From IMG/VR virus record IMGVR_UViG_2703718808_000010: DNA of 6,779 nt; one strand, 5' to 3'. The stretch comes from a virus. Taxonomy: Duplodnaviria > Heunggongvirae > Uroviricota > Caudoviricetes. Position 1 is the first letter of the stretch, and every line of letters starts with the position of its first letter. The position numbers and the translations under genes are program-made. Under the pieces are notes generated by a model that searched no databases, was not told where the DNA came from, and was given only the letters and a program-made list of their open reading frames with translations. Shown here piece after piece: positions 3,150 to 6,100 of the stretch.

Positions 3150-6100
3150 ATGGCAGTAAAGATTTCAGGTGTACTGAAAGACGGCACAGGAAAACCGGTA
3201 CAGAACTGCACAATCCAGCTGAAAGCAAAACGTAACAGCACCACGGTGGTGGTGAACACGCTGGCCTCAGAAAATCCGGATGAAGCCGGGCGTTACAGCA
3301 TGGACGTTGAGTACGGTCAGTACAGCGTTATTCTGTTGGTGGAAGGATTCCCGCCGTCACATGCCGGGACCATCACCGTGTATGAAGATTCCCGACCCGG
3401 TACGCTGAATGATTTTCTCGGTGCCATGACGGAGGATGATGCCCGTCCGGAGGCTCTGCGCCGTTTTGAACTGATGGTGGAAGAGGTGGCGCGTAACGCG
3501 TCCGCGGTGGCACAGAACACGGCAGCCGCGAAGAAGTCAGCCAGTGATGCCGGCACATCTGCCAGTGAGGCGGCAACCCATGCGACTGATGCTGCAGGCT
3601 CAGCGCGTGCAGCCAGCACGTCAGCCGGACAGGCCGCGACGTCGGCTCAGGAGGCGTCTTCCAGCGCAGGAACGGCATCAACAAAGGCCACTGAAGCATC
3701 AAAAAGTGCTGCCGCTGCAGAGTCCTCAAAAAGCGCGGCGGCCACCAGTGCCGGTGCCGCGAAAACGTCAGAAACGAATGCTGCAGCGTCACAAAAATCA
3801 GCAGCCACTTCTGCATCCACTGCGACGACGAAAGCGTCAGAAGCCGCCACTTCAGCCCGGGATGCGGCGGCCTCCAAAGAGGCGGCAAAATCATCAGAAA
3901 CGAACGCCTCCACAAGCGCCAGCAGTGCAGCCTCCTCGGCAACGGCGGCAGGAAATTCCGTGAAGGCGGCAAAAACGTCCGAGACGAATGCTAAGTCTTC
4001 TGAAACGGCAGCGGAACAGAGCGCCTCAGCTGCGGCAGACTCTGAGACAACAGCTGCATCATCGGCCCGTGAGGCGTCCATTAAGGCAGAGGAGGCAGCA
4101 GTCAGTGCCACCGCCGCCGGAAAATCGGCAGAAAGCGCCGCATCATCCGCTTCAACAGCCACAACGAAGGCTGGCGAAGCCACTGAACAGGCCAGCGCAG
4201 CAGCGAGGTCTGCTTCCGCAGCGAAGACATCCGAAACGAACGCGAAAGCGTCGGAAACCAGCGCAGAATCCTCAAAAACGGCTGCCGCATCGTCCGCCAG
4301 TTCGGCGGCGTCATCGGCATCATCGGCGTCTGCTTCAAAAGATGAGGCGACCAGACAGGCGTCAGCAGCGAGGGGCAGCGCCACGACGGCATCCACGAAG
4401 GCGACAGAGGCTGCTGGCAGTGCGGCAGCGGCAGCACAGAGCAAAAGTACGGCAGAATCCGCAGCAACGCGCGCCGAGACAGCAGCAAAACGGGCAGAGG
4501 ATATTGCATCCGCCGTGGCGCTTGAGGATGCGAGCACGACGAAAAAGGGGATAGTACAGCTCAGTAGTGCGACTAACAGCACTTCCGAGTCACTGGCGGC
4601 AACACCAAAAGCCGTTAAGGCCGCGTATGACCTGGCTAACGGGAAATACACCGCACAGGATGCAACGACAGCACAGAAAGGGATAATCCAGCTAAGCAGC
4701 GCGACCAACAGCACGTCTGAAACGCTTGCCGCGACACCAAAGGCAGTAAAAGCAGCCAATGACAATGCTGAGAAACGTCTGCAGAAAGATCAGAACGGTG
4801 CGGATATCCCTGGCAAAGATACCTTTACGAAAAATATTGGTGCCTGCCGTGCCTTCGGTGGGTCAGTAAGCACAACAACAGGAAACTGGACGACTGCACA
4901 GTTTATCGAGTGGCTGGATTCTCAGGGAGCATTTAACCATCCATACTGGATGTGCAAGGGTTCCTGGTCTTATGGCAATAATAAAATCATTACTGATACT
5001 GACTGCGGTAATATTCATCTCGCCGGAGCTGTCATTGAAGTAATGGGGATAAAGTCAGCGATGACGATCCGCATTACCACACCGACCACCTCCACTGGTG
5101 GTGGAACAACTAACGCCCAGTTTACCTATATTAATCACGGAACAGATTATTCACCTGGCTGGCGAAGGGACTATAACTCCAGAAATAAGCCAACGGCATC
5201 AGAGATCGGGGCGTTACCGTCAGGTGGAACAGCAGTATCATCAGTTAATCTGGCTTCAAAAGGTCGGGTAACCGCGCTGACAGACAATACGCAGGGGGCA
5301 GCAGGTCTTGAGTTATACGAGGTGTATAACAACGGATATCCAACAGCGTATGGAAATATCATTCACCTGAAAGGGATGACAGCCGTTGGCGAAGGTGAGT
5401 TACTCATCGGCTGGAGTGGTACAAGCGGTGCTCATGCTCCGGCATTTATTCGTTCACGACGGGATACGACCGACGCAAACTGGTCGCCGTGGGCGCAGCT
5501 TTACACCTCGGCTCATCCTCCTGCAGAGTTTTATCCAGTCGGTGCACCAATCCCGTGGCCATCAGATACCGTTCCGTCTGGCTATGCCCTGATGCAGGGG
5601 CAGACTTTTGACAAATCTGCATACCCGAAACTTGCAGCGGCTTATCCGTCAGGCGTGATCCCTGATATGCGTGGCTGGACGATTAAGGGCAAACCTGCCA
5701 GTGGTCGGGCCGTATTGTCTCAGGAACAGGACGGCATTAAATCGCATACCCACAGCGCCAGCGCATCCAGTACGGATTTGGGGACGAAAACCACATCGTC
5801 GTTTGATTACGGCACTAAATCCACGAATAACACTGGTGCGCATACCCATAGTTTAAGTGGCAGCACGAATGCAGCTGGTAATCACAGCCATAGAGATGGC
5901 CGTCGATTTAACCCCAGTGTTTTTAAAGATACTTATCAATATGGTTATACAAGCTCAGGTCAAAATACCTGGGGTGTACAAGGCTCAGTAGGTATGTCTA
6001 CGGGGTGGTTAGCTAATACCAGTACAGATGGTAATCATAGCCACTCACTGTCCGGCACAGCAGCATCTGCAGGTGCACACGCGCATACTGTCGGTATTGG

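Follow-up and report, generated by a model that had tools for sequence, protein, structure and literature searches.

Two adjacent PF03406 units in the shaft-coding region of a mosaic lambda-type side tail fibre gene from an Escherichia coli prophage

The stretch of DNA analysed here (the window; 6,779 nucleotides, IMG/VR record IMGVR_UViG_2703718808_000010) is the tail-fibre end of a lambda-like prophage of Escherichia coli. It contains stf, which encodes the side tail fibre protein (Stf), and within this gene lie two neighbouring copies of a repeat catalogued in Pfam as PF03406 (Phage_fiber_2), the origin and significance of which are the subject of this report. The features of the window are collected in Table 1; the RefSeq start of stf corresponds to window position 3150.

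The two units (nt 4536–4667 and 4668–4799) are directly adjacent and occupy 44 codons each, so that the copies are offset by 132 nt in the frame of the stf open reading frame (ORF; 3144–6221). Each begins with a 30-codon core, at nt 4536–4625 in unit 1 and 4668–4757 in unit 2. The last 14 codons of unit 1 are a linker that is seen again between units across all multi-unit arrays, and the copies follow one another head to tail with no unrelated sequence between them. The two cores have 26 of 30 residues in common, while 64 of 91 bases (70%) are the same. As many as 22 of the 27 base differences fall at third codon positions, five at first positions and none at second positions. Eighteen codons differ synonymously and four non-synonymously, which corresponds to a pN of 0.06 with 22.0 of the 23.2 synonymous sites changed (Nei–Gojobori), and the longest run of bases identical between the units is 8 nt. 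An earlier note on this DNA had described two motif copies 44 codons apart with nearly identical peptides and diverged nucleotide sequences. Its coordinates, frame and peptides proved to be exact, the pairwise alignment bears out the disparity between protein and DNA, and the copies are not essentially identical at the nucleotide level, the finding that it had named as telling against it.

Tandem Repeats Finder reported no repeat in the window because the DNA copies are too diverged, and we used an ungapped repeat finder and a motif hidden Markov model (HMM) in its place. The former returned the pair 4525–4631 and 4657–4763 (72% identical, spacing 132). The latter, which was built from the two copies in the window and was also run on the fibre genes of annotated phages, scores unit 1 at 95 bits and unit 2 at 97 bits. 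The Pfam model itself matches Stf in two stretches, the best covering residues 464–504, at 125.4 bits compared with a gathering cut-off of 22. We note that the surrounding protein is rich in Ala, Ser and Thr, a bias which can yield spurious repeats, and that near-identical peptides might also be left by a young tandem duplication. Both ideas have a negligible probability in our view. The motif is not of low complexity, is conserved across many phage types and is matched twice by PF03406 with a whole-protein E-value of 6e-37, and a DNA divergence of 30% with saturated synonymous sites excludes a recent event; the core comparison, the Pfam matches and the synonymous saturation thus refute both. 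It is scarcely more credible that the peptide is conserved on account of a gene on the opposite strand. There is a 372-residue minus-strand ORF in the ORF list (3647–4765) that overlaps the rod and both units, and the lambda record carries a hypothetical antisense orf206b at the equivalent place. However, the concentration of differences at plus-strand third positions (22 of 27) is the signature of coding on the plus strand, and the translation of the antisense ORF is low-complexity sequence of Ala, Ser and Val, as expected opposite GCN-rich codons. The feature is confirmed to be real and to have been accurately described, but it is an ordinary one, being a catalogued repeat with a variable copy number.

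Table 1. Features of the window, with positions in nucleotides
Feature	Position	Strand	Basis and remarks
J, C-terminal two thirds	to 2415		ORF list
lom	2486–3085		ORF list
stf, side tail fibre gene, 1025 aa	3144–6221	+	GTG start 3144; between lom and tfa
Lambda-type N-terminal fibre domain PF08400	3150–3551	+	aa 3–136; Pfam, 239 bits
Ala/Ser/Thr-rich rod with degenerate internal repeats	3552–4535	+	translation; repeat families D1, D3, D4, D7, D9
PF03406 unit 1	4536–4667	+	aa 465–508 of Stf; 30-codon core and 14-codon inter-unit linker; Pfam match
PF03406 unit 2	4668–4799	+	aa 509–552; core and terminal tail; Pfam match
Middle shaft segment, related to P2-type H	4800–5522	+	aa 553–793; blastp
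Lambda-type distal receptor-binding part	5532–6218	+	71% to lambda orf-314; tail collar PF07484 at aa 800–847, 45.7 bits
tfa, tail fibre assembly chaperone	6221–6552	+	PF02413 match; about 110 codons, then insertion sequence
Insertion sequence end	6553–6779	+	transposase ORF from 6618; PF01527 HTH_Tnp_1, E-value 1.3e-6

Comparison of Stf with other fibre proteins using blastp indicates that the gene is a mosaic. Residues 1–406 are 71% identical to lambda orf-401 and residues 797–1025 are 71% identical to lambda orf-314. Between and overlapping these lie residues 392–678, which are 69% identical to H of Yersinia phage P37, and residues 370–793, which are 54% identical to H of P2DC1; lambda gave no blastp match to residues 553–793. 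Stf is not collinear with lambda along its whole length and is accordingly a mosaic member rather than a collinear orthologue, and the repeat array is found at the seam between the lambda-type proximal part and the P2-type middle part. These alignments show that N-terminus, Ala-rich rod and tip of the fibre are of the lambda type, and that the two units and a middle shaft of the P2-H type lie between rod and tip. We consider it highly probable that the feature is a two-unit head-to-tail PF03406 array ('Pf2' or 'repeated element a') in the shaft of such a mosaic lambda-type side tail fibre.

The construction of the array follows rules that hold elsewhere. A unit consists of the 30-residue conserved core and about 14 further residues, and units are arranged head to tail. 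The 14 residues between units are nearly always one and the same linker, both in P2-like and in P1-like arrays, whereas three forms are found after the last unit: a P2-H-type tail, VMDETN(R/K)K where the fibre is of the lambda type, and MDNANARLAKDRNG in Mu. The window obeys this grammar, with the inter-unit linker in unit 1 and the P2-type terminal tail in unit 2. The latter matches the tails of the units P2a_1, P2DC1_4 and P37_3 and is typical of the last unit in fibres of the P2-H type.

The motif HMM finds one unit each in lambda (orf-401), a P2-type H gene and Mu, one unit and a degenerate partial unit in P1, two units in Wphi, three in Yersinia phage P37 and in P88, four in P2DC1 and 15 in the P1-like phage vB_EcoM-813R1. 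For the wider survey the units were counted in six-frame translations of fetched loci; matches in protein databases were not used for this purpose, since the majority were short or 'partial' pieces from the ends of contigs. With a single unit as the tblastn query, the phage collection gave 581 places in 418 records. A collection with one genome per species contained 50 arrays of one unit, 17 of two, eight of three and four of four, with 11 of the 50 single-unit arrays being lambda DNA itself, and the best 80 loci from IMG/VR comprised 34, 8, 32 and 6 arrays of two, three, four and five units, respectively. The 132 nt period was found again in arrays from 169 sources; overall the period ranges from 129 to 141 nt and the arrays from one to 15 units. 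Fibres with lambda-type N-termini have one or two units, those of the P2-H type one to five and those of the P1 type one, two or 15. The junction of unit 1 and unit 2 was detected in 1909 of 5426 complete E. coli genomes using a 141 nt query (running from the end of unit 1 across the linker into the beginning of unit 2) at a coverage of at least 80%, and among the rows sampled almost all matches were in genes for a 'prophage tail fiber N-terminal domain-containing protein'. The two-unit state is common in lambda-type Stf. The earlier note is correct that lambda Stf has a single copy, as it is in its statement that the motif occurs in other fibres, since we found it in P2-type H, Mu S, P1 S, Wphi, P37, P88 and the fibres of many Enterobacterales. 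The rarity that the note implied does not hold for a catalogued repeat of variable copy number with a junction this widespread.

Three further observations were made during the survey. Most of the listed database relatives are 'partial' proteins from contigs only a few hundred bases long, which indicates that short-read assemblies break in fibre genes and that copy numbers taken from draft genomes are unreliable. The 15-unit S fibre gene of vB_EcoM-813R1 (locus L007, ON470617.2, 5356–8874) is annotated as four consecutive 'fragment' coding sequences, which may represent real frameshifts or a misassembled repetitive array. Finally, DNA 99.7–100% identical to lambda J–lom–stf is present, in some cases on contigs of very low coverage, in assemblies assigned to Desulfosporosinus, Leeuwenhoekiella, Marinifilum, Enterococcus, Pseudomonas, Lacrimispora, Pseudoxanthomonas, Paracnuella, Chromatiales and Chromatium (loci L133 and L135–L144). 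Lambda-like DNA in assemblies as unrelated as these is almost certainly contaminating lambda control DNA.

Of the systems with which the window can be compared, lambda Stf (P03764) belongs to the same protein class and carries the same PF03406 core at the same position, after the PF08400 domain and an Ala-rich rod. It differs in having one unit followed by VVMDETNRK; in the window there are two, the linker and tail are of the P2 type, and the rod is longer by 105 residues. The arrays in P2-type H proteins (Wphi gpH, P37, P88 and P2DC1) resemble that of the window in their 44-codon units, identical linker and last-unit ending. The first and second units are 71–74% identical in DNA in Wphi, P37 and P2DC1, as in the window, and 88% identical in P88. 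Unlike Stf of the window, these proteins have an N-terminal attachment domain of the P2 H type and two to five units, and their internal units are often 85–100% identical, which points to recent expansion. The P1 S gene (M81956; annotated in AF234173) has in its constant part an element with the same period and motif as those of the window, but it consists of one full and one degenerate partial unit and belongs to a myovirus fibre, upstream of a Cin-invertible segment. The P1 record annotates these as the 132 bp 'repeated element a1' and, directly upstream, the partial 'repeated element a0', citing M81956.

The two units of the window are old, separately evolving lineages with a peptide under strong purifying selection. 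Eight codons are identical at the 26 conserved residues, compared with 8.8 expected from the codon usage of the gene (P = 0.45) and 9.9 expected from the pooled codon usage of the units (P = 0.28). Codon usage specific to each column of the family gives a higher expectation of 13 (P = 0.03), but this value is inflated by the relatedness of the units. The synonymous sites are fully randomised, with no DNA trace of shared ancestry beyond what the peptide demands and no excess divergence. Unit 1 is 78–83% identical to the lambda unit, to P88 unit 3 and to single-unit alleles from E. coli and E. albertii; unit 2 is 82–84% identical to P2-type internal units and to the same single-unit alleles. Each is thus closer to units of other genes (79–84%) than to its own neighbour (71%). 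Among 16 distinct two-unit alleles of the lambda type, unit 1 is 95% and unit 2 is 92% identical from allele to allele. The identity of unit 1 to unit 2 is 0.738 both within and between alleles (one-sided permutation P values of 0.44 and 0.68), and the split between the units is therefore older than the diversification of these alleles. Within genes the units show neither general homogenisation nor extra divergence.

With regard to origin, the earlier note had proposed old copies under purifying selection, which the pN of 0.06 and the saturated synonymous sites sustain, and had left a choice between duplication and acquisition from another fibre gene. Here import is the likelier of the two, because the array lies at the seam with the P2-type middle part, because its linker and terminal tail, as well as the 240 residues that follow unit 2, resemble those of P2 H, and because the nearest non-allelic relatives of unit 2 are P2-type internal units (82–83% identity). 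On this basis the whole array, or no less than its linker together with unit 2, would have come into the lambda-type gene along with the P2-type middle segment, possibly by recombination in or beside the conserved core, which would serve as a shared joint for the shuffling of fibre modules. Tail fibre gene exchange between unrelated phages is reportedly the subject of papers by Haggard-Ljungquist (1992) and Sandmeier (1992, 1994). We regard an ancient duplication in place, within the lambda-type Stf lineage and without any import from the P2 type, followed by long drift under constraint on the peptide, as unlikely but deserving of serious consideration. Unit 1 (TTKKGIV...) does resemble the lambda unit (TTRKGIV..., 78% nucleotide identity), both units are equally old relative to the diversification of the alleles, and multi-unit arrays with neighbours that are 100% identical show that such events happen in this family. 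What such a duplication would leave unexplained is the linker, the tail of unit 2 and the following 240 residues, all of which are of the P2-H type and absent from lambda, as well as the affinity of unit 2 for P2-type internal units.

Copy number appears to change by recombination within the core. The single unit of E. coli ECDA1023 (locus L118, CP178308.1, 4091–4222) is an exact chimera of the two units of the allele L031 (2267–2530 in that locus). Its first 45–50 nt are those of L031 unit 1 and the remainder are those of L031 unit 2 with no mismatches, whereas a comparison with L031 unit 1 on its own gives 38 mismatches and one with unit 2 on its own gives 11. The gene upstream in ECDA1023 shares 94% identity with the window as far as nt 4631. 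The chimera shows the pattern that would be expected of unequal crossover between units. Some two-unit alleles (such as L023 and L031) have patches of unit-1 and unit-2 bases swapped, with identical runs of 23–29 nt, and in three of the 187 distinct pairs of neighbours the identity is 100%, from which it follows that fresh duplications also occur. Efficient RecA-dependent exchange generally needs 20–30 bp of identity. The longest identical run of the pair in the window (8 nt) is well below this, and its array should therefore be comparatively stable. The suggestion in the earlier note that divergence limits deletion by recombination can be upheld to this extent, as it follows from established recombination biology together with the 8 nt run, and the presumed parent of the chimera is itself partly homogenised. 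In our reading, this probable stability towards deletion by homologous recombination or slippage is a consequence of age and not a selected design.

A more adaptive account would have selection keeping neighbours synonymously different as arrays of similar DNA collapse, with divergence acting as a functional stabiliser. It could draw on the change at 22 of the 23.2 synonymous sites with no identical run above 8 nt, on the deficit of identical codons against column-specific usage (eight compared with 13) and on the single-unit chimera with a putative parent of partly homogenised core. Nevertheless, we find it improbable. Against random codon choice the eight identical codons are close to the 8.8–9.9 expected, the column-specific expectation is inflated for the reason given above, the identity between units 1 and 2 is the same within and between alleles, and there are many natural arrays with neighbours that are 85–100% identical. 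Two tests for excess synonymous divergence, one of codon identity and one of identity within compared with between alleles, were both negative. Selection for divergence thus has no support, as the divergence is no greater than under random codon choice and no greater within than between genes. A related and only slightly less doubtful proposal is that neighbouring Pf2 units persist only once their DNA has drifted or been selected apart; this would stabilise shaft length, while homogenised arrays would collapse to fewer units and fibre length variants would turn over continually in prophage populations.

With regard to function, the best-supported reading is that the unit would be a small trimeric module, or a joint that connects rod segments, and that the second unit would add one more. 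Each unit might accordingly be pictured as a trimer-forming shaft module, with the unit count determining a small increment of shaft length or how many knobs or joints there are. A comparable case is the EPclB protein of enterohaemorrhagic E. coli (EHEC), a trimeric fibre protein in which the same Pfam repeat is a module flanked by two rod-like segments (PMC3368898). In rotary-shadowed preparations of the collagen-like proteins of EHEC prophages an internal globule was assigned to Pf2 (PMC3368898). The flanking rods of EPclB are collagen triple helices, however, and it has a single Pf2-type repeat, unlike the window. The only PDB entries that match this region by sequence are of the Mu fibre (5yvq, 8ju3 and 9ki1). 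The paper on the in situ Mu structure describes a model of only 'the N-terminus' of gp49, and no residue range was found in it.

Several points weigh against this interpretation of the array, its import and its structural role. The loci surveyed were ranked by similarity to a two-unit query, and the copy-number proportions given above are biased, those from IMG/VR towards multi-unit arrays. The case for import is built on an identity of 82–83% over only 90 nt and on flanking similarity, and the sequences behind the chimera in ECDA1023 fit the loss of one of two units as well as they fit a single-unit ancestor. An AlphaFold2 monomer model of Stf residues 455–602, calculated with a 25-sequence alignment, was uninformative (mean pLDDT 49.5, pTM 0.19), although low confidence in a monomer is expected for a trimeric fibre, and the 2012 study of the EHEC proteins describes the structure and function of Pf2 as little known (PMC3368898).

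As a discovery the two-unit array carries little weight. The motif is a curated Pfam repeat, and its repetition was annotated in the record for P1 with reference to a GenBank entry of the 1990s (M81956). About one in three complete E. coli genomes has this exact two-unit junction, as does a deposited phage. The sole idea left that is mildly novel is that DNA divergence between neighbours lets arrays persist, and the two tests described above gave active selection no support. Of some practical value is that the conserved core is a natural seam at which fibre modules of the lambda, P2, P1 and Mu types are joined, which makes it a sensible place to join the parts of engineered chimeric fibres. 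The lambda junction with the peptide MDETNR has reportedly been used for engineered Stf chimeras; a literature search with this peptide returned no paper. The survey also provides a clean example of recombination inside a protein-coding repeat altering its copy number.

The Mu tail fibre protein S matches the window by sequence beyond the repeat itself. It has one unit, which is followed by a conserved NGADIP...N(I/L)G stretch, and the peptide after unit 2 of the window (4794–4850) is homologous to NGADIPNKPLFIQNLG of Mu S (locus L005, 2636–2691). In Mu the codons for this peptide contain the Gin crossover site at the boundary of the G segment, 38 nt downstream of the unit. No such site is present there in the window: at the position homologous to Mu gixL (TTATCCAAAACCTCGGTTTACAGGAA) it reads TTTACGAAAAATATTGGTGCCTGCCG, which agrees with gixL at about half of the bases and lacks the palindromic core. 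The window, which ends in an insertion sequence, contains no invertase gene and no inverted alternative C-terminal segment. In E. coli FAM21845, the chromosome of which is 99.7% identical to window positions 1–6552, a pinQ recombinase gene is found about 1.3 kb downstream of tfaQ, on the far side of an IS3-family element, and no inverted alternative stf segment was seen at the locus.

The FAM21845 chromosome confirms the gene order J–lom–stf–tfa, which is also that of lambda; its annotations are J (frameshifted), Ail/Lom, phage tail protein and tfaQ. The stf gene is 100% identical in several E. coli genomes, including FAM21845 where it is the 'phage tail protein', and the 120-residue stretch over both units (window 4470–4830) is 100% identical in phage PhiR42_1, in which it belongs to a 'side tail fiber protein'. 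The Tfa partner in the window is not intact, with 116 residues compared with 188 for tfaQ of FAM21845, and homology to tfaQ and to all other loci ends at 6552. The interruption of tfa in the window, together with the frameshift in J of the nearly identical FAM21845 locus, suggests a defective prophage in which Stf may go unassembled.

The rod that precedes the repeat shows only degenerate repeat families of 20–32 nt in its DNA. It is 105 residues longer than that of lambda, the motif beginning 464 residues from the N-terminus compared with 359. This difference is exactly 15 heptads, which fits a published remark that 'PCoil' regions vary by multiples of seven.

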